Shown here: positions 29,239-35,349 of the stretch, in pieces
Position numbering within the stretch: the stretch's first letter is position 1
How the letters are laid out: each line of letters starts with the position of its first letter
DNA from: Ostreococcus lucimarinus
Lineage: Eukaryota
Assembly (NCBI GenBank): GCA_000092065.1
Contig: CP000582.1
Strand: one strand, 5' to 3'
Length of the DNA stretch: 64,000 nucleotides
The notes under the pieces: generated by a model
Seen by the model: only the letters and a program-made list of their open reading frames with translations
The model's database searches: none
Told to the model about the DNA's origin: nothing
Program-made: the position numbers and the translations under genes

Positions 29239-29829
29239 CTAAACAAAGTATTTCGCCATCTGAATCTCCTTCCTCACGTATCCGCATCGCTCATAAAATC
29301 CGGCGTTTGCCTCCGAGCAGTCCAGAATCACCTTGTAACAACCGGCAAACTCCGCCGCCTTCGTCAACGCTTCAATGATTACCCTACCCAGATCCTTGCC
29401 TCGTTCGTTCGAATCCACCACTACGTCTTCAATGTGTCCACACGTCCCGCAATTCCGCGTAAACTTTCGTTCGAGCAGCAGCGTCCCGCTCGCCACCACG
29501 CGCGTCCCGCACGCGCTCTCGATCACGTACACGTACTCCGGGCCATCCGCGATCGCGCGGAAGCGACGCTTAAAATCGCCCTCGCCGACCGTGGTGAGTT
29601 GACTCAGAAGTGCGCGGAAGCCCTTGCGGTCGTCGTCGGCGCGCAATCGGCGCACGGTGATCGGGGAGGCGTCGGGACCGGCTTTATGGTTAGTCACTCG
29701 GAGTCGCCTGGGCGGCGCCCGGAGCGAGTCCCTGATGCGGTTGATGCGCCGGAACAGCGCGCTGGTGAACAAACCGAGGACGAATGTGAAGGAGCCGCGC
29801 TTGGAGACGTACATGGCGGCACCGGACAT
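29239..29829 (-). CDS. GNA1: Glucosamine-6-phosphate N-acetyltransferase (GNA1, GNAT family)
   Basis: GNAT motifs with GNA1-specific residues: VRRLRADD, GHIEDVVVDSNERGKDLG, CYKVILDCSEANAGFYERCGY. The N-terminus has a hydrophobic segment (FTFVLGLFTSALF). Confidence 0.65.
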   Translation of the reverse strand: MSGAAMYVSKRGSFTFVLGLFTSALFRRINRIRDSLRAPPRRLRVTNHKAGPDASPITVRRLRADDDRKGFRALLSQLTTVGEGDFKRRFRAIADGPEYVYVIESACGTRVVASGTLLLERKFTRNCGTCGHIEDVVVDSNERGKDLGRVIIEALTKAAEFAGCYKVILDCSEANAGFYERCGYVRKEIQMAKYFV

Positions 29830-29947: not shown

Positions 29948-31360
29948 TTAGGGCTGCGTCGATTCTACGTCGTTTTCCGCGAGGTCGTCGTCGCCGATGC
30001 ACTTGATGGAGCCGCACCAAAGCCCGCCCGCATCGTCGTCGATGTACAGCTCGAGCGCGGCGGAGATCAGGACGAAGGCTGAGCTCGCCCAGAAGCATGC
30101 GGCGAAACCTTCGACGGTGGAGCCGACGTAGGAGTAAAGCGCGCCGCTAATGATGGTGCCTATGAGTCGGCCGAATGCGTTGGCCATGTAATAAAAGCCG
30201 ACGTTTATCGCCACCTTGTTTCCGTCGGCGTACTTGACCACCAAGTAGGAATGAATGGCTGAGTTCACGGCGAATAAATACGCGAAGACGAAGACACCGA
30301 CAAAGATGACGACCGTTTTCGTCGTCGTCGCGCCCGAATGGTTTTGAAACGCGCTCGATTGTATGAAACCACCGAGGAAGAGCGGTACGCTCACCAGCGC
30401 CACGTTCCAAATCACCGCCACGTGCTTGTTCGGCGGATTTTGATTGAGCGGTTTGAGAAACAGTTGCGGCGTCCACGCTTGCAACTGCCCGTAAACGATG
30501 ATATAGCCCGCGAGAAGCGCACCGACGGCAGAGCGCGGCCAACCCATTCCCTCGGCGCTTCGCAAGAAGAACGGCAGCGGCACCTCAAACCACAAATCTC
30601 GGCTCCCGAACAAAAACATCCGACTCAGCGAGAGAATGTTCATATTATAGCTTTGTTTAAACACCGTACTCATGGTGATGTTCGCCTTCGCCACTCGACC
30701 GAGGGAATTATCCAGTCCGAACACCGCGAACGGTAACGCCGCGGCGACGAGCGCGATTTGCATCCAAAGCGCCGCCTCGTAACTCACCCCGAGCATCGCC
30801 GCGCCGATGAAGTACCCCACCCCCTTAAAGCTATTCTTCAATCCGGTGATCGCGCTCACGAGCTTGAATAACGACTTTTGCTTATCCTCAGGCGTCACGA
30901 GTTTCGTCACCGTCTTCCCTCCCAGCTTCGTCAAGTCCTTCGCGACGCCGCAAATCGCCTGCGCGACGGTGACGAACGCGATCGCCTCGCGCTTCGACCA
31001 CCCGTCGTCCCACGCGAACAGCATCCCCAACCCCACCACTTGCAATCCCAGCCCCGCGCACAGCGTCTGTCGCACCCCAAATCGCGCGCCCGCGACGCCG
31101 GCGCACAGATTCGTCGCCGCGCCGCACAATTCGTACAGCGTAAACATCGTCGCCACCTCCATCGCCTCGAACCCTCGCGCGTACGCGTGCATGAGCACCA
31201 GCATCCGCACCGCGCCGTCCGTCATCGTAAACAGAACGTATGAGATGGAGATCACCGCGAACGGACCCAGGAACGTTTTCTTCGCCTCGCGCGCCGCTCG
31301 TCCGTCGTCCATCGCGCGCGCGCGCGTCGCCGATGCGGCGTCCGGTCGGCCGTCCGCCAT
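29948..31360 (-). CDS. Major facilitator superfamily (MFS)-type transporter
   Basis: About 12 predicted TM helices in 470 aa with the paired 6+6 arrangement and a central hydrophilic loop (KLVTPEDKQKSLFK). The N-terminus is Arg-rich. No subfamily assignment from sequence alone. Confidence 0.5.
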   Translation of the reverse strand: MADGRPDAASATRARAMDDGRAAREAKKTFLGPFAVISISYVLFTMTDGAVRMLVLMHAYARGFEAMEVATMFTLYELCGAATNLCAGVAGARFGVRQTLCAGLGLQVVGLGMLFAWDDGWSKREAIAFVTVAQAICGVAKDLTKLGGKTVTKLVTPEDKQKSLFKLVSAITGLKNSFKGVGYFIGAAMLGVSYEAALWMQIALVAAALPFAVFGLDNSLGRVAKANITMSTVFKQSYNMNILSLSRMFLFGSRDLWFEVPLPFFLRSAEGMGWPRSAVGALLAGYIIVYGQLQAWTPQLFLKPLNQNPPNKHVAVIWNVALVSVPLFLGGFIQSSAFQNHSGATTTKTVVIFVGVFVFAYLFAVNSAIHSYLVVKYADGNKVAINVGFYYMANAFGRLIGTIISGALYSYVGSTVEGFAACFWASSAFVLISAALELYIDDDAGGLWCGSIKCIGDDDLAENDVESTQP

Positions 31361-31570
31361 CGTCCGCGAAACGTCCTCGCGCGGCCAGCGATCGCGCGTT
31401 TCCGGCGCGCGCGCGCGAGCGAGAAATCACCGCCCGCGCGCCCGCGCGCCGCGCGACGCGCGCGTCGAGCGCGCGTCCCGCGCGATTCCGGCGCGCGTCG
31501 AGAGGTGAGGAATATTCCCGTCGAACTTCGTAACGACTCGAATCGTCACATCGCGACGACTTCTCGAGGC

Positions 31571-32965
31571 ATGCCGCGCGTGCGCGCGCTCGCGGACGCG
31601 CGCGATCTGACGAATAAAATCGTTCTCGTCCGCGTCGATCACAACTGCGTGAAGCGCGGCGTCGTGCGCGACGTGCACAGGATCGAACAGTCGCTGCCGA
31701 CGCTGTACAACATCGTCGAGCGCGGCGGACGACCGATCCTGATGACGCACGTCAATCGACCGCGAAGCGCGAAGACGGGGGAGATCGCGCGCGATGACGA
31801 CGAGGACGGCGTGGCGGCGATCGTGGACGTGCTGCGGATGAAACTGGGGGTGACGTTCGCGGCGCCGAGCTTTCGAAGCGACGGCGCGCGAGGGATACGA
31901 AGCGTGGACACGAGCGTGAACTTCTTGCTGGACGATCTGCGAGCGCGGAGGATCGGAGGGATATACCTGCCGAACACGCGGTGGTTCGAGGGCGAAGAGG
32001 CGGGAGAGGGGACGGAGGCGTACGAGGCGCTGGCGAGACAGCTGGCGGGGTTGGCGGACGTGTACGTGAACGACGCGTTCGGGTCGTGGCAGGCGCACGC
32101 GTCGACGGTTGGGATCACGAAATACTTGCCGAGTTACGCCGGGTTGTTGATGCAGAAGGAGCTGCGCGCGGTGGAGGCGGTGCTGAATCCGAAGCGACCG
32201 TTCGTCGCCGTCGTGGCGGGGGCCAAGGTGGACACGAAGCTCGGAACGCTCAAGGCGGTGGCGGCGCGGTGCGATTCGTTGATTCTCGGTGGAGTGGTTT
32301 ATAACGCGTATTTATGCGCAAAGTATGACATCGAGGTCGAAGGCGTGAGCGAGGGGGACGTGGAGCTGGCGAGGGAGCTTCTGTCGCCCGAGGCGCAGGC
32401 GAAAATCATCGAGCTCCCGGTGGTTGTGGAATCCACGTCGCTCAAAGGGTGCGGTTGCATCCCTAAAGAGGGCGAGTGCGGAGACCCGAAAGAAACGCTA
32501 GGGGCCACGCGCGCGCTTCGAGTGAGCGATCTCCAGCGCGGGGCTAGTTACGGATACTTTCTCGACGTCGCCGCGAGTTCGTTTGAAGACGAAAAGGTGA
32601 AAAACGCTCTGCACGGAGCAAAGTGTATCTTCGTCAACGCCGTCATGGGGTTCACATCCAGTGGATTTCACGAAGGCACGACCGCGCTGGATCACGCCAT
32701 CGCGGCGAATAAGGGCGCGCGTAAATATTTTGGCGGCGGCGACACGATTCAAGAGTTCAAGTCGCTCACGCCCGCGCTGTACTTATCTGCCGCCGTAGAC
32801 CCGACGTTTTACTTATTCACCGGTGGTGGTACCGTGCTCAGAGCGTTAGAGTTGGGTGGCGCCGAAAAATTGGAAACTGTGCAGTGTCTCATGGCGGATG
32901 ACGACGAGGAGATTGAGCCGCACGCCGAACCAAAGTGCATGCGATTCGCCGATTGCGCGTGTTAG
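31571..32965 (+). CDS. Phosphoglycerate kinase family protein (divergent, with insertions)
   Basis: PGK N-domain motifs are present but altered: KIVLVRVDHNCV (compare RVDFNVP) and RPILMTHVNRP (compare ILxSHLGRP). C-domain nucleotide-binding motifs: GFTSSGFHEGT, YFGGGDTIQEFKSL, FTGGGTVLRALELG. The 465 aa length is 50-60 aa longer than canonical PGK. Start at Met 31571. Confidence 0.55.
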   Translation: MPRVRALADARDLTNKIVLVRVDHNCVKRGVVRDVHRIEQSLPTLYNIVERGGRPILMTHVNRPRSAKTGEIARDDDEDGVAAIVDVLRMKLGVTFAAPSFRSDGARGIRSVDTSVNFLLDDLRARRIGGIYLPNTRWFEGEEAGEGTEAYEALARQLAGLADVYVNDAFGSWQAHASTVGITKYLPSYAGLLMQKELRAVEAVLNPKRPFVAVVAGAKVDTKLGTLKAVAARCDSLILGGVVYNAYLCAKYDIEVEGVSEGDVELARELLSPEAQAKIIELPVVVESTSLKGCGCIPKEGECGDPKETLGATRALRVSDLQRGASYGYFLDVAASSFEDEKVKNALHGAKCIFVNAVMGFTSSGFHEGTTALDHAIAANKGARKYFGGGDTIQEFKSLTPALYLSAAVDPTFYLFTGGGTVLRALELGGAEKLETVQCLMADDDEEIEPHAEPKCMRFADCAC

Positions 32966-33048
32966 AGACGCTCATTCGTGTAATAAATAGTATTCATATT
33001 GAAATTCTTCGAAGGTTCGCTACGTCTAAACCGACGAGTAGCGCTTTC

Positions 33049-34113
33049 TTACAACGACGCGGCGACCATTTTCACGCAGTCGACCATGCGACAGCTGTAG
33101 CCGTACTCGTTGTCGTACCAAACGTAAAGCTTCAAGTGCGTGCCGTCGACGACCATCGTGGACTGCGCGTCGACAATGCCCGATCGCGGATCGTTGACGA
33201 AATCCGTGGACACGAGAGGTTGTTCTTCGTAACCCATGATGCCGACCAAAGGTCCTTCCTCGGATTTCGCCTTGAGCAAGGCGTTCACCTCTTCCACCGT
33301 CACCGCGCGCTTGGTCTCGAGAACGATATCCGTCAGAGACCCGTTGATGAGCGGCACGCGCACCGCGAGTCCGTTCAATTTACCCTTGAGTTCCGGAATG
33401 ATGAGCTGCACCGCCGTGGCGCTCCCCGTGGACGTCGGCGCCAAGTTTACCAACCCGCTCCTCGCCCGTCTCAAATCATCCTTCTTCGTGTTCGGCGCGT
33501 CCACCATCGACTGCGTGTTCGTCACGTTATGCACCGTCGTTATGCTTCCCCGATGCACCCCGATCTCCTTATGAATCGTGTAAATCACCGGCGCGATGCA
33601 ATTCGTCGTGCACGACGCCGCCGTCACCACTCGATGCTTCTCCGCGTCGTACTCCCCGTGATTCACCCCGTACACCACGTTCAGCGCCCCCTCGCACTTC
33701 ACCGGCGCCGACACCACCACCTTCTTCACCACCCCCCCGTGTTTCTCGCCGAAATACGCGCTCTCGAGCTTTTTCATCTTCAAAAACGCCCCCGTGCACT
33801 CCATCACCACCTCGCACCCCGCGCTCGACCACGGCGCGTCCTCCGGATCCTCGCACGCGCTGAACCCGATCCTGCGCTCCTCCCCGGCGTCCCCGACGAC
33901 CAAACACCGCGCGCCCTCGTCGTACCGCAGCGTTTTCGTCCATCGTCCGTGCACCGAGTCGAACTCGCCGAGGTACGCGCACGACGCCCCCGACCCGGGC
34001 GTCTCGTTCACGTGCACCACCTCGAGCGTCGGGTCGTCATACGCCACGCGAAACGCCAGCCGACCGATGCGACCGAAGCCGTTTATCCCCACTCTCGTCC
34101 TCGCGCGCGGCAT
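33049..34113 (-). CDS. GAPDH: Glyceraldehyde-3-phosphate dehydrogenase (GAPDH)
   Basis: MPRARTRVGINGFGRIGRLAFR (NAD-binding GxGxxG), ASCTTNCIAPV (catalytic Cys), and WYDNEYGYSCRMVD at the C-terminus. The 354-aa protein is taken from Met at 34113; the upstream part of ORF 33049..35334 is Arg-rich filler. Confidence 0.8.
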   Translation of the reverse strand: MPRARTRVGINGFGRIGRLAFRVAYDDPTLEVVHVNETPGSGASCAYLGEFDSVHGRWTKTLRYDEGARCLVVGDAGEERRIGFSACEDPEDAPWSSAGCEVVMECTGAFLKMKKLESAYFGEKHGGVVKKVVVSAPVKCEGALNVVYGVNHGEYDAEKHRVVTAASCTTNCIAPVIYTIHKEIGVHRGSITTVHNVTNTQSMVDAPNTKKDDLRRARSGLVNLAPTSTGSATAVQLIIPELKGKLNGLAVRVPLINGSLTDIVLETKRAVTVEEVNALLKAKSEEGPLVGIMGYEEQPLVSTDFVNDPRSGIVDAQSTMVVDGTHLKLYVWYDNEYGYSCRMVDCVKMVAASL

Positions 34114-34491
34114 CGTCGCGCGTCGCGCGTCGACGTCGTCGATCGATCGCGCGCGTTCGAGTGACGATTGGAATATTCCGCCGTCGCGCGCGATCGACGC
34201 CTCGACGCGGTCGTCGATCGACGAGTCGAGGTTCGACGAGATCGATCGATCGACGCGACGCGGTTCGAGCGCGCGCGCGTCGGCCCTGGATGTCTGAAAC
34301 GAGACTCGGTTCACACACGGATTTCGGGACGACGCATCGCCATCCGGTCGCGGTCGACGCGGCGCGCGCGCGCGACGCGCGCGCGAGACGCGCGCGCGCA
34401 TCGCGAGCGGCGCGCGAGCGAGGCGCACGCGAGGCACGCGCGCGCGAGATCGACGCGGTCGAGCGCGACGGGAAACGCGCGCGCGAAGGCG

Positions 34492-35277
34492 ATGATGTCG
34501 ACGACGCTGGGGCGATCGGTGGTGGCGACGACGACGCGACGCGGCGACGCGGCGCGAGCGCGGGCGAAGAAGAAACGGAGCGGCGGCGGACGGTCGGGGA
34601 ACGATGATTACGCGCAGGATTTCGCGCTGTATGGGTCGTTCGATGAGTCGTACACCGAGGGCGCGGGGTTGTTGCTCGGGAAGGGGGAGCTGCGGTCGAG
34701 CGGGACGCGCGCGAAGGGGCGGTCGGGAGCGGGATACGACGCCGTCGCGGGCGTGCTCGACGCGCTGGCGGAGGTGAAGAGTGAGAGGAAGTCGCGGGGG
34801 GGAGGAGGGAGGCGCTACGATGCGTATGGGGATGATGACGAGGACGCGGCGGACGAGGGCGCGGCGGCGGACGGGACGGCGGCGGGCGAGGGCGAAGACT
34901 TTGACGCGGAATCCGCGCCGAAGGCGAAGGCTCGACCGGTGCGATCGGCGCCCGCGATGGCGGCGCGACCGGTGCCGACGCAACCGCAAGCGCCGAGACC
35001 GAAACCGAAGGTTGTGGTGAAACCGAAGAAACCGGCGCCGGCGGCGACGATGGATCCGGCGCAGACCAAGGCCAAGGCGAGCCAAACTTTGAGCAAGTGG
35101 GGTTTCTCCGCGAGCGACGTGGAGACGGCGATCGAGGCGACGAGCGCGAGCGCTGGCGACGGCGCGACGGCGAAAAAACGGCAAATTGCCGCGCTCGATT
35201 GGATGTTGGCGAATTTGCCCATCGACGACGTGCCGGATGAATATAAATTGGAGGCGCAACAGGCTCAATCCGCGTGA
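34492..35277 (+). CDS. Hypothetical low-complexity protein with conserved C-terminal helical segment
   Basis: Start at MMSTTLGR (34492). The body is Ala/Gly/Asp/Lys-rich. The C-terminus (KASQTLSKWGFSASDVETAIEATSASAGDGATAKKRQIAALDWMLANLPIDDVPDEYKLE) looks like a small UBA/CUE-like helical domain. The call is weak. Confidence 0.3.
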   Translation: MMSTTLGRSVVATTTRRGDAARARAKKKRSGGGRSGNDDYAQDFALYGSFDESYTEGAGLLLGKGELRSSGTRAKGRSGAGYDAVAGVLDALAEVKSERKSRGGGGRRYDAYGDDDEDAADEGAAADGTAAGEGEDFDAESAPKAKARPVRSAPAMAARPVPTQPQAPRPKPKVVVKPKKPAPAATMDPAQTKAKASQTLSKWGFSASDVETAIEATSASAGDGATAKKRQIAALDWMLANLPIDDVPDEYKLEAQQAQSA

Positions 35278-35349
35278 TTCAATCGATCGATTCTTTTGTA
35301 ATACAGAGTACGAACAAGCAGTAGAAAACAACAAACGTTTCGACGAATT

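Follow-up and report, generated by a model that had tools for sequence, protein, structure and literature searches.

An ArsJ-GAPDH3-PGK4A neighborhood in Ostreococcus lucimarinus: a putative arsenate-detoxification cluster with a divergent phosphoglycerate kinase-like protein and a conserved phosphate-starvation-type promoter motif

A 64-kb window of the genome of Ostreococcus lucimarinus (the whole stretch of DNA that we analyzed) carries a convergent pair of genes that a first-pass annotation, made from the sequence by itself, had taken to encode two glycolytic or Calvin-type enzymes, namely, a long, divergent member of the phosphoglycerate kinase (PGK) family and a glyceraldehyde-3-phosphate dehydrogenase (GAPDH). 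The list of open reading frames (ORFs) confirmed that the two genes are convergent, with their stop codons 83 bp apart (spacer, positions 32966-33048), but their metabolic assignment did not hold: the dehydrogenase, GAPDH3, falls in the ArsJ-associated clade (NCBIfam NF033735, 460.8 bits against a cutoff of 450), and a gene for an ArsJ-type exporter adjoins the PGK-like gene, PGK4A. Judged by these matches, the pair can be securely assigned as two-thirds of a three-gene arsenate-detoxification neighborhood made up of ArsJ, GAPDH3, and PGK4A. The best explanation of the locus as a whole is that it is an arsenate-detoxification cluster in which PGK4A would act as an active kinase coupled to GAPDH3 and the genes would be under phosphate-starvation control, an account that we consider probable, though well short of certain. 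The cluster and its elements are laid out in the window as follows.

29948..31360, minus strand: ArsJ-type major facilitator superfamily (MFS) exporter, a homologue of the organoarsenical efflux permease, 470 aa (NCBIfam NF033734, Pfam MFS_1).
31361..31570, no strand: 210-bp intergenic region between the divergent ArsJ and PGK4A genes, GC content 0.71, presumed to be a bidirectional promoter and holding one copy of GAATATTC.
31510..31517, no strand: P1BS-type palindrome GAATATTC (consensus GNATATNC), located 54 bp before the ATG of PGK4A and 150 bp before that of ArsJ.
31571..32965, plus strand: PGK4A-type PGK-like protein, 464 aa (Pfam PF00162; XP_001416265.1, UniProt A4RSD5).
32087..32092, plus strand: codons for W173-Q174 (numbering of the window protein), which replace the canonical H169-R170; all 120 homologues have W/Q here, whereas canonical PGKs have H/R.
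32450..32491, plus strand: Mamiellophyceae-specific 14-aa insert CGCIPKEGECGDPK with the first Cys triad, C-x-C-x6-C, absent from bacterial and streptophyte members.
32891..32962, plus strand: acidic, Cys-rich C-terminal tail MADDDEEIEPHAEPKCMRFADCAC with the second Cys triad, C-x5/6-C-x-C.
32966..33048, no strand: AT-rich convergent spacer of 83 bp between the 3' ends of PGK4A and GAPDH3.
33049..34113, minus strand: GAPDH3, an ArsJ-associated type I GAPDH, 354 aa (NF033735, TIGR01534).
34171..34178, no strand: second copy of GAATATTC, 58 bp before the GAPDH3 ATG.

ArsJ and PGK4A are thus head to head and PGK4A and GAPDH3 tail to tail, in the order ArsJ (leftward), PGK4A (rightward), and GAPDH3 (leftward), with no more than 4.2 kb separating gapdh and arsJ and PGK4A lying between them. 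In the plus-strand ORF 31505..32965, the first ATG is at 31571, and translation from it gives a 464-aa protein that is identical, letter for letter, to the protein annotated in O. lucimarinus CCE9901 (XP_001416265.1/A4RSD5); the start of PGK4A is therefore not miscalled. Mechanically called ORFs overshoot the true starts upstream in this GC-rich genome: the minus-strand ORF that holds the GAPDH (33049-35334) is 761 aa long, and that of the PGK-like gene begins with a GTG 66 nt before the ATG (31505-31570, plus strand). Several metagenome gene calls carry false N-terminal extensions of this kind (PGKs of 486, 572, and 590 aa and a GAPDH of 421 aa).

The identification of the exporter and of GAPDH3 rests on family models and on direct comparison with a bacterial arsenic operon. 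The only NCBIfam match of the window ArsJ was NF033734 (MFS_ArsJ), at 390.9 bits (E = 7e-117), just below the cutoff of 400; orthologues from a Micromonas-like lineage and from Bathycoccus scored 400.7 and 379.4 bits, respectively. A bacterial arsR-acr3-gapdh-arsJ operon encodes an ArsJ that scores 578 bits with this model and is 39% identical to the window protein over 413 aa. GAPDH3 not only passes the "ArsJ-associated GAPDH" model but also exceeds the cutoff of TIGR01534 (375 versus 367), matches Pfam Gp_dh_N (94 bits) and Gp_dh_C (188 bits), and has the SCTTNC and TVH motifs of the catalytic site. Its identity to the GAPDH of the same bacterial operon is 58% and extends to the C-terminal KMVA(A/S)SL; this operon protein, which is among its closest bacterial relatives, is named "ArsJ-associated GAPDH" by NCBI.

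As cited in PMC7826186, the bacterial ArsJ-type GAPDH takes arsenate instead of phosphate and converts glyceraldehyde 3-phosphate (G3P) to 1-arseno-3-phosphoglycerate, and ArsJ exports this product, which breaks down outside the cell (Chen, Yoshinaga, Garbinski & Rosen 2016). Resistance through this export is published for bacteria only, the algal counterpart being the arsenate sensitivity of Chlamydomonas arsJ and PGK3 mutants (PMC7826186). The algal cluster resembles the bacterial system in having an ArsJ-type MFS protein and an ArsJ-associated GAPDH. It differs in that the bacterial GAPDH-ArsJ operons have no PGK gene, in that the algal genes form separate divergent and convergent transcription units rather than an operon, and in that neither ArsR nor ACR3 lies near the cluster in the window. 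In the diatom Fragilariopsis cylindrus (locus L093, 5819-9263), a GAPDH3-like gene 59% identical to the window GAPDH is divergent beside a DUF4147/MOFRL glycerate-kinase-type gene, with no ArsJ within 8 kb; the same GAPDH clade has a different kinase partner there.

The ArsJ-GAPDH3-PGK4A neighborhood itself is already known. Foflonker and Blaby-Haas (Mol Biol Evol 2020, PMC7826186) described a conserved ArsJ-GAPDH3-PGK-like neighborhood in green algae, the PGK being PGK3 in Chlorophyceae and PGK4A in Mamiellophyceae. In the genomes used (O. tauri, M. pusilla, and B. prasinos), PGK4A adjoins ArsJ, GAPDH3, or both. The same authors found that Chlamydomonas arsJ and PGK3 insertion mutants are arsenate sensitive, that PGK3 resembles homologues from Actinobacteria, Chlamydia, and Deinococci, and that green algae have canonical PGKs besides these extra subfamilies. 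They called the enzymatic role of the neighborhood PGKs unknown and suggested recycling of the 3-phosphoglycerate (3-PGA) that arises by hydrolysis of 1-arseno-3-PGA. The window, with the same three families in the same lineage, holds the O. lucimarinus copy, and since the neighborhood has been published, the finding as first written adds little. Features that we did not encounter in the 2020 paper are a bacterial sister group of at least 587 close relatives, the replacement of H169-R170 by WQ together with the loss of Glu343, the two Cys triads, and a P1BS-type motif shared among the promoters. Term searches of that paper returned no mention of active-site residues or cysteines in the text they covered, and its abstract terms the PGK-like gene algal specific. 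The remaining interest therefore lies in the WQ-type kinase, its cysteines, and the predicted phosphate-starvation control.

The adjacency of PGK4A, ArsJ, and GAPDH3 is not due to chance, as it recurs in Ostreococcus clade 2, in two Micromonas-like lineages, and in Bathycoccus; in five further algal loci, PGK4A is linked to ArsJ, GAPDH3, or both. In Ostreococcus clade 2, the gene order is that of the window. In the two Micromonas-like lineages, PGK4A (rightward) and GAPDH3 (leftward) are followed by ArsJ (rightward), so that GAPDH3 and ArsJ are directly adjacent and divergent. Bathycoccus has ArsJ (leftward) and PGK4A (rightward), with a PHO4 phosphate transporter gene two genes away. The window protein qualifies as a PGK4A both by this linkage and by its position outside the canonical PGK clade in a neighbor-joining tree and an identity matrix.

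The promoters of the cluster share a motif as well. The PHR1/PSR1 phosphate-starvation element, P1BS, has the consensus GNATATNC (PMC2936532, PMC7578391). Exact copies of GAATATTC occur four times in the window, twice inside long ORFs and twice in the PGK4A/ArsJ and GAPDH3 promoters. All six algal loci (the window and the five others) carry the motif upstream of PGK4A, at a distance of 48 to 291 bp, and the two Ostreococcus lineages also carry it about 60 bp upstream of GAPDH3 (58 bp in the window and 60 bp in clade 2). Outside the window, its copies are located as follows.

Ostreococcus clade 2 (L094), 5644 and 8236: just two GAATATTC copies in 15 kb, placed in the PGK4A/ArsJ and GAPDH3 promoters as in the window.
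Micromonas-like L096 and L097, 7831 in L096: a single GAATATTC copy per locus, 163 bp before PGK4A.
Micromonas-like L005, 7703: one of two GAATATTC copies, 291 bp upstream of PGK4A.
Bathycoccus (L006), 7836 and 13158: one GAATATTC in the ArsJ/PGK4A spacer and one 134 bp upstream of PHO4.

Of the 11 exact copies counted across 131.7 kb, seven are concentrated in about 1.9% of the sequence (post hoc binomial P of ~2.5e-10), and every copy in a conserved promoter is followed by a C, giving GAATATTC(C). The presence of GAATATTC in the PGK4A and GAPDH3 promoters predicts phosphate-starvation control of these genes, and we infer that the cluster may belong to a phosphate-starvation regulon. Such control would be physiologically sensible because arsenate enters through phosphate transporters. 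In Micromonas under phosphate deficiency, the log2 changes were 4.0 for one GAPDH, 3.3 for an "arsenate permease", 1.7 for one PGK, and -1.4 for a second PGK, under JGI IDs 104954, 56091, 104803, and 104767 that are not tied to GAPDH3, ArsJ, or PGK4A (PMC4864187, Table S2). If 104954, 56091, and 104803 are GAPDH3, ArsJ, and PGK4A, respectively, these values would be direct expression support.

Turning to PGK4A itself, we found that it is a long, divergent PGK-family member, as the first-pass annotation had proposed. It matches Pfam PF00162 at 260.4 bits (cutoff, 27; E = 3.5e-77), its AlphaFold2 model is confident (pLDDT, 89.6), and its top Foldseek matches are all PGKs (probability, 1.00), the best being 1php, 3uwd, and 1v6s with target-normalized TM scores of 0.84 to 0.86. 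With canonical PGKs (EC 2.7.2.3; human PGK1, 2xe6 and 2wzb; the Chlamydomonas plastid enzyme, 7zy7) it has in common the two-domain fold, the catalytic and hinge residues, and most 3-PGA ligands; it differs from them in sequence (about 25 to 31% identity) and in being a net 47 residues longer than human PGK1 (77 residues found only in PGK4A minus 30 found only in the human enzyme). This length is real. It comes from family-wide internal insertions (aa 67-71, 93-105, 313-317, and 401-407) and from the lineage-specific 14-aa Cys-rich insert (aa 294-307) and 24-aa C-terminal tail; an intron artifact or a miscalled start was rejected as its source, since the ORF product matches the annotated protein exactly and the added residues sit inside the chain or at its C-terminal end.

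For the active site, residue numbers are those of human PGK1 (our reference, confirmed to be identical to PDB 2xe6_A) unless stated otherwise, and the alignment consisted of the 120 best homologues and deeper representatives at 50% identity. D23, N25, R38, H62, R65, R122, K215, K219 (K219 and K223 of the window protein, respectively), N336, D374, and T375 are kept in at least 98% of the 120 homologues, as are the hinge residues E192, T393, and G394 and the Gly (GGG) loops. The first-pass annotation was thus correct that the Gly-rich nucleotide/phosphate loops of the C domain are kept. It had also read the motifs RVDHNCV and MTHVNRP as a loss of conserved substrate-binding positions; both motifs are there, but their changes (F to H in RVDxN and SHLGRP to THVNRP) spare the ligand positions, the ligands D23, N25, H62, and R65 are all retained, and the G-to-N change in THVNRP is seen only in Ostreococcus and Bathycoccus, the family consensus being THVGRP.

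The changes that define the clade, which the earlier annotation had not seen, lie elsewhere. Among the seven residues that bind 3-PGA or 1,3-bisphosphoglycerate (1,3-BPG) (D23, N25, R38, H62, R65, R122, and R170; list from PMC3900376), six are kept, and R170 is Q in every family member, next to W in place of H169. Near the distal-phosphate pocket, the clade-defining changes are H169W, R170Q, E119P, and F123W; around the nucleotide, they are G212A, A240Y, L256G, W335V, G337A, P338V, E343 to P or S (S in the window protein), and S392F, and they turn the NGP motif into NAV. R170 is a listed 1,3-BPG-binding residue and a ligand of the substrate phosphate, and E343 has been reported to be essential for domain closure (PMC3900376); the closed state is latched by R65 and R170, with R170 a partner in the closure salt bridge (PMC7729029). 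A further change, D218T, was considered as a family-specific rewiring of the closure salt bridge and dropped, T being present also in about half of the canonical bacterial representatives. We read the phosphoryl-transfer machinery as intact and both distal pockets as remodeled, which would fit either a PGK with variant binding or a kinase of shifted specificity.

PGK4A belongs to a distinct, ancient "WQ-type" clade that is not confined to algae and is marked by R170Q, H169W, loss of E343, and the NGP-to-NAV change. At least 587 matches to it were found among the GTDB species-representative genomes, mainly in Desulfobacterota and Nitrospirota, and these relatives are 433 to 440 aa long and 51 to 58% identical to PGK4A. 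A simple neighbor-joining tree places the clade as a deep sister group to canonical PGKs, to which it is about 30% identical; its members are 64 to 74% conserved between phyla, a streptophyte member (Spirogloea) is 64 to 69% identical to the bacterial proteins, and the Mamiellophyceae form a branch of their own. As the tree is crude, we draw no direction of transfer from it. The bacterial proteins (e.g., from Desulfatibacillum, annotated as "phosphoglycerate kinase") have the same signature residues and family-wide insertions as PGK4A, at identities of 51 to 61%. Unlike PGK4A, they are without the Cys insert and tail and have no arsJ or gapdh neighbors, and their genes usually stand alone. At 85 bacterial loci, an arsenic context was sought and not found, neither GAPDH nor TPI was present within 8 kb (0/85, with no gap-pgk-tpi arrangement), and the most frequent neighbor recurred in at most 11. 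The only recurrent metabolic context of the bacterial genes is in one Nitrospirota lineage, where the WQ-type gene lies between a gene for a long class II fructose-bisphosphate (FBP) aldolase and one or two phosphofructokinase (PFK) genes (L003, 1237-6586; also L043, L045, and six further Nitrospirota loci).

The enzymatic role that we infer for PGK4A is that of an active kinase that would be coupled to GAPDH3 through the acyl phosphate 1,3-BPG. PGK4A might supply this compound, making it from abundant photosynthetic 3-PGA and ATP; GAPDH3 could then use the 1,3-BPG to load the thioacyl intermediate that arsenate attacks, or to regenerate G3P. The other possibility is that PGK4A drains 1,3-BPG as the competing phosphate product and recycles the 3-PGA that hydrolysis sets free. 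A phosphate-starvation regulator of the GARP/Myb-CC type (PSR1-like), acting at GAATATTC(C), would probably switch the genes on together; arsenate uptake is higher in phosphate-starved cells. The recruitment of two PGK subfamilies, PGK3 and PGK4A, to the same neighborhood favors ordinary PGK chemistry as the recruited property.

Several points weigh against this account. The phosphate-starvation control of these genes is a prediction from a promoter motif; other GARP factors, NIGT1/HRS1 among them, also recognize GAATATTC, and the Micromonas-like loci have no copy between GAPDH3 and ArsJ. The genetic evidence, arsenate sensitivity, concerns Chlamydomonas PGK3 rather than PGK4A, and literature searches found no biochemical report on PGK4A or its bacterial WQ-type relatives. 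A PGK that accepted 1-arseno-3-PGA would be predicted to counteract export. Neither ArsJ nor GAPDH3 is found within 8 kb at the 85 bacterial loci, so the arsenic link is one of algal synteny only; recruitment to arsenic would have taken place in algae, and glycolysis is the sole informative context among bacteria. Finally, because R170 and E343 are replaced and the adenine pocket is remodeled (L256G, A240Y, W335V, and P338V), the substrate and nucleotide specificity of PGK4A may differ from 3-PGA and ATP.

This last point is the core of the alternative that survives best, namely, that PGK4A is a co-opted bacterial-type enzyme that has been neofunctionalized, with a true substrate other than 3-PGA/1,3-BPG or a donor other than ATP. 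A paralogue of altered specificity was one of the three options that the first-pass annotation had offered, and it stays a candidate. The enzyme might act on another acid with a less charged distal group, use a different phosphoryl donor, or handle an arsenylated intermediate directly. We regard this as possible and less likely than a kinase with ordinary PGK chemistry. The family-wide loss of one of three phosphate-binding arginines (R170Q) speaks for it, as do the two new tryptophans (H169W and F123W) that line the distal-phosphate pocket with E119P, the loss of E343, and the rebuilt adenine and ribose pocket. So too do the depth of a clade that is so far from canonical PGKs yet so well conserved between phyla, its absence from gap-pgk-tpi arrangements, and the failure of PGK4A to reach any NCBIfam PGK equivalog. 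Against this, R65, R122, H62, D23, N25, and R38 still make up most of the 3-PGA site, and the FBP aldolase/PFK context in Nitrospirota is glycolytic. Yeast R168 mutants (equivalent to human R170) keep activity. In addition, the nonorthologous PGK3 fills the same neighborhood in Chlorophyceae (PMC7826186), which argues for ordinary PGK chemistry.

A more elaborate reading concerns the cysteines of the Mamiellophyceae proteins. Compared with its bacterial orthologues, PGK4A has gained two elements, the insert CGCIPKEGECGDPK, with C294, C296, and C303, and a tail ending in EPKCMRFADCAC, with C456, C462, and C464. A motif scan found both triads in 81 full-length algal sequences and neither in 94 bacterial or streptophyte sequences; the eight sequences with one triad look like truncated or overextended gene calls. 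The insert, modeled by AlphaFold2 with a pLDDT of about 70, follows the residue aligned with human F291, which we take to be part of the adenine pocket. The two triads probably form a metal-binding or redox regulatory element. It is conceivable, though we think it doubtful, that the WQ-type PGKs are a functionally distinct kinase family with altered acceptor or nucleotide specificity, or both, and that Mamiellophyceae acquired one of them from bacteria, which provides a third enzymatic ArsJ step under P1BS control gated by metal, As(III), or redox state through its six cysteines, the CxCx6C insert beside the adenine pocket and the Cx6CxC tail anchored on the other domain together forming the switch.

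It is highly improbable that the pair is a glycolytic or Calvin cycle pair, or that a plain housekeeping PGK lies beside a GAPDH gene by chance. Both proteins do belong to glycolytic enzyme families, and PGK4A bears the public name "phosphoglycerate kinase". This reading has already been largely refuted by the ArsJ-type GAPDH, which passes the ArsJ-associated model and matches the GAPDHs of ars operons, and by the adjacent ArsJ, the linkage to which is conserved across genera; green algae also carry canonical PGKs (PMC7826186).

Least likely of all is a catalytically dead regulatory or scaffolding protein, a possibility raised by the first-pass annotation, such as a sensor binding 3-PGA or, via its cysteines, arsenic: R170 and E343 are indeed lost and six invariant cysteines have been added in CxC-type triads, which recall the As(III)-binding sites of ArsR and ArsD, but no variation across algae and bacteria is seen in the phosphoryl-transfer center (R38, K215, K219, N336, D374, and T375) or in either Gly-rich loop, so PGK4A should not be a pseudoenzyme, and the Cys additions are confined to Mamiellophyceae whereas the WQ signature is family-wide.

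The genes that flank the cluster are unrelated to it and encode an FKBP/TPR protein, a glucosamine-6-phosphate N-acetyltransferase, and a Serinc homologue. The acetyltransferase (GNAT) gene beside ArsJ (29239-29829, minus strand) was considered as an ArsN-type arsenic gene and rejected, since it encodes a glucosamine-6-phosphate N-acetyltransferase (PDB 3t90, E = 4e-39) and matches ArsN1 and ArsN2 only at noise level. The order FKBP-GNAT-ArsJ is also kept in Ostreococcus clade 2. Scans of the window for tRNAs and for Rfam families gave none, and the folding of the 83-nt spacer was unremarkable (z-score, -0.48).

Arsenate mimics phosphate, and it reaches its highest ratio to phosphate in surface ocean waters that are poor in phosphate, whose major primary producers include Ostreococcus, Micromonas, and Bathycoccus. 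Each arsenate exported by the ArsJ route is paid for with one three-carbon unit, so the way in which this route is fed and regulated bears on the carbon and phosphorus economy of these algae. Whether PGK4A is an ordinary PGK or has a new activity without R170 and E343 bears also on hundreds of Desulfobacterota and Nitrospirota genomes. That arsenate efflux may be part of the phosphate-starvation regulon through the conserved GAATATTC is directly testable, as is the role of the six cysteines.

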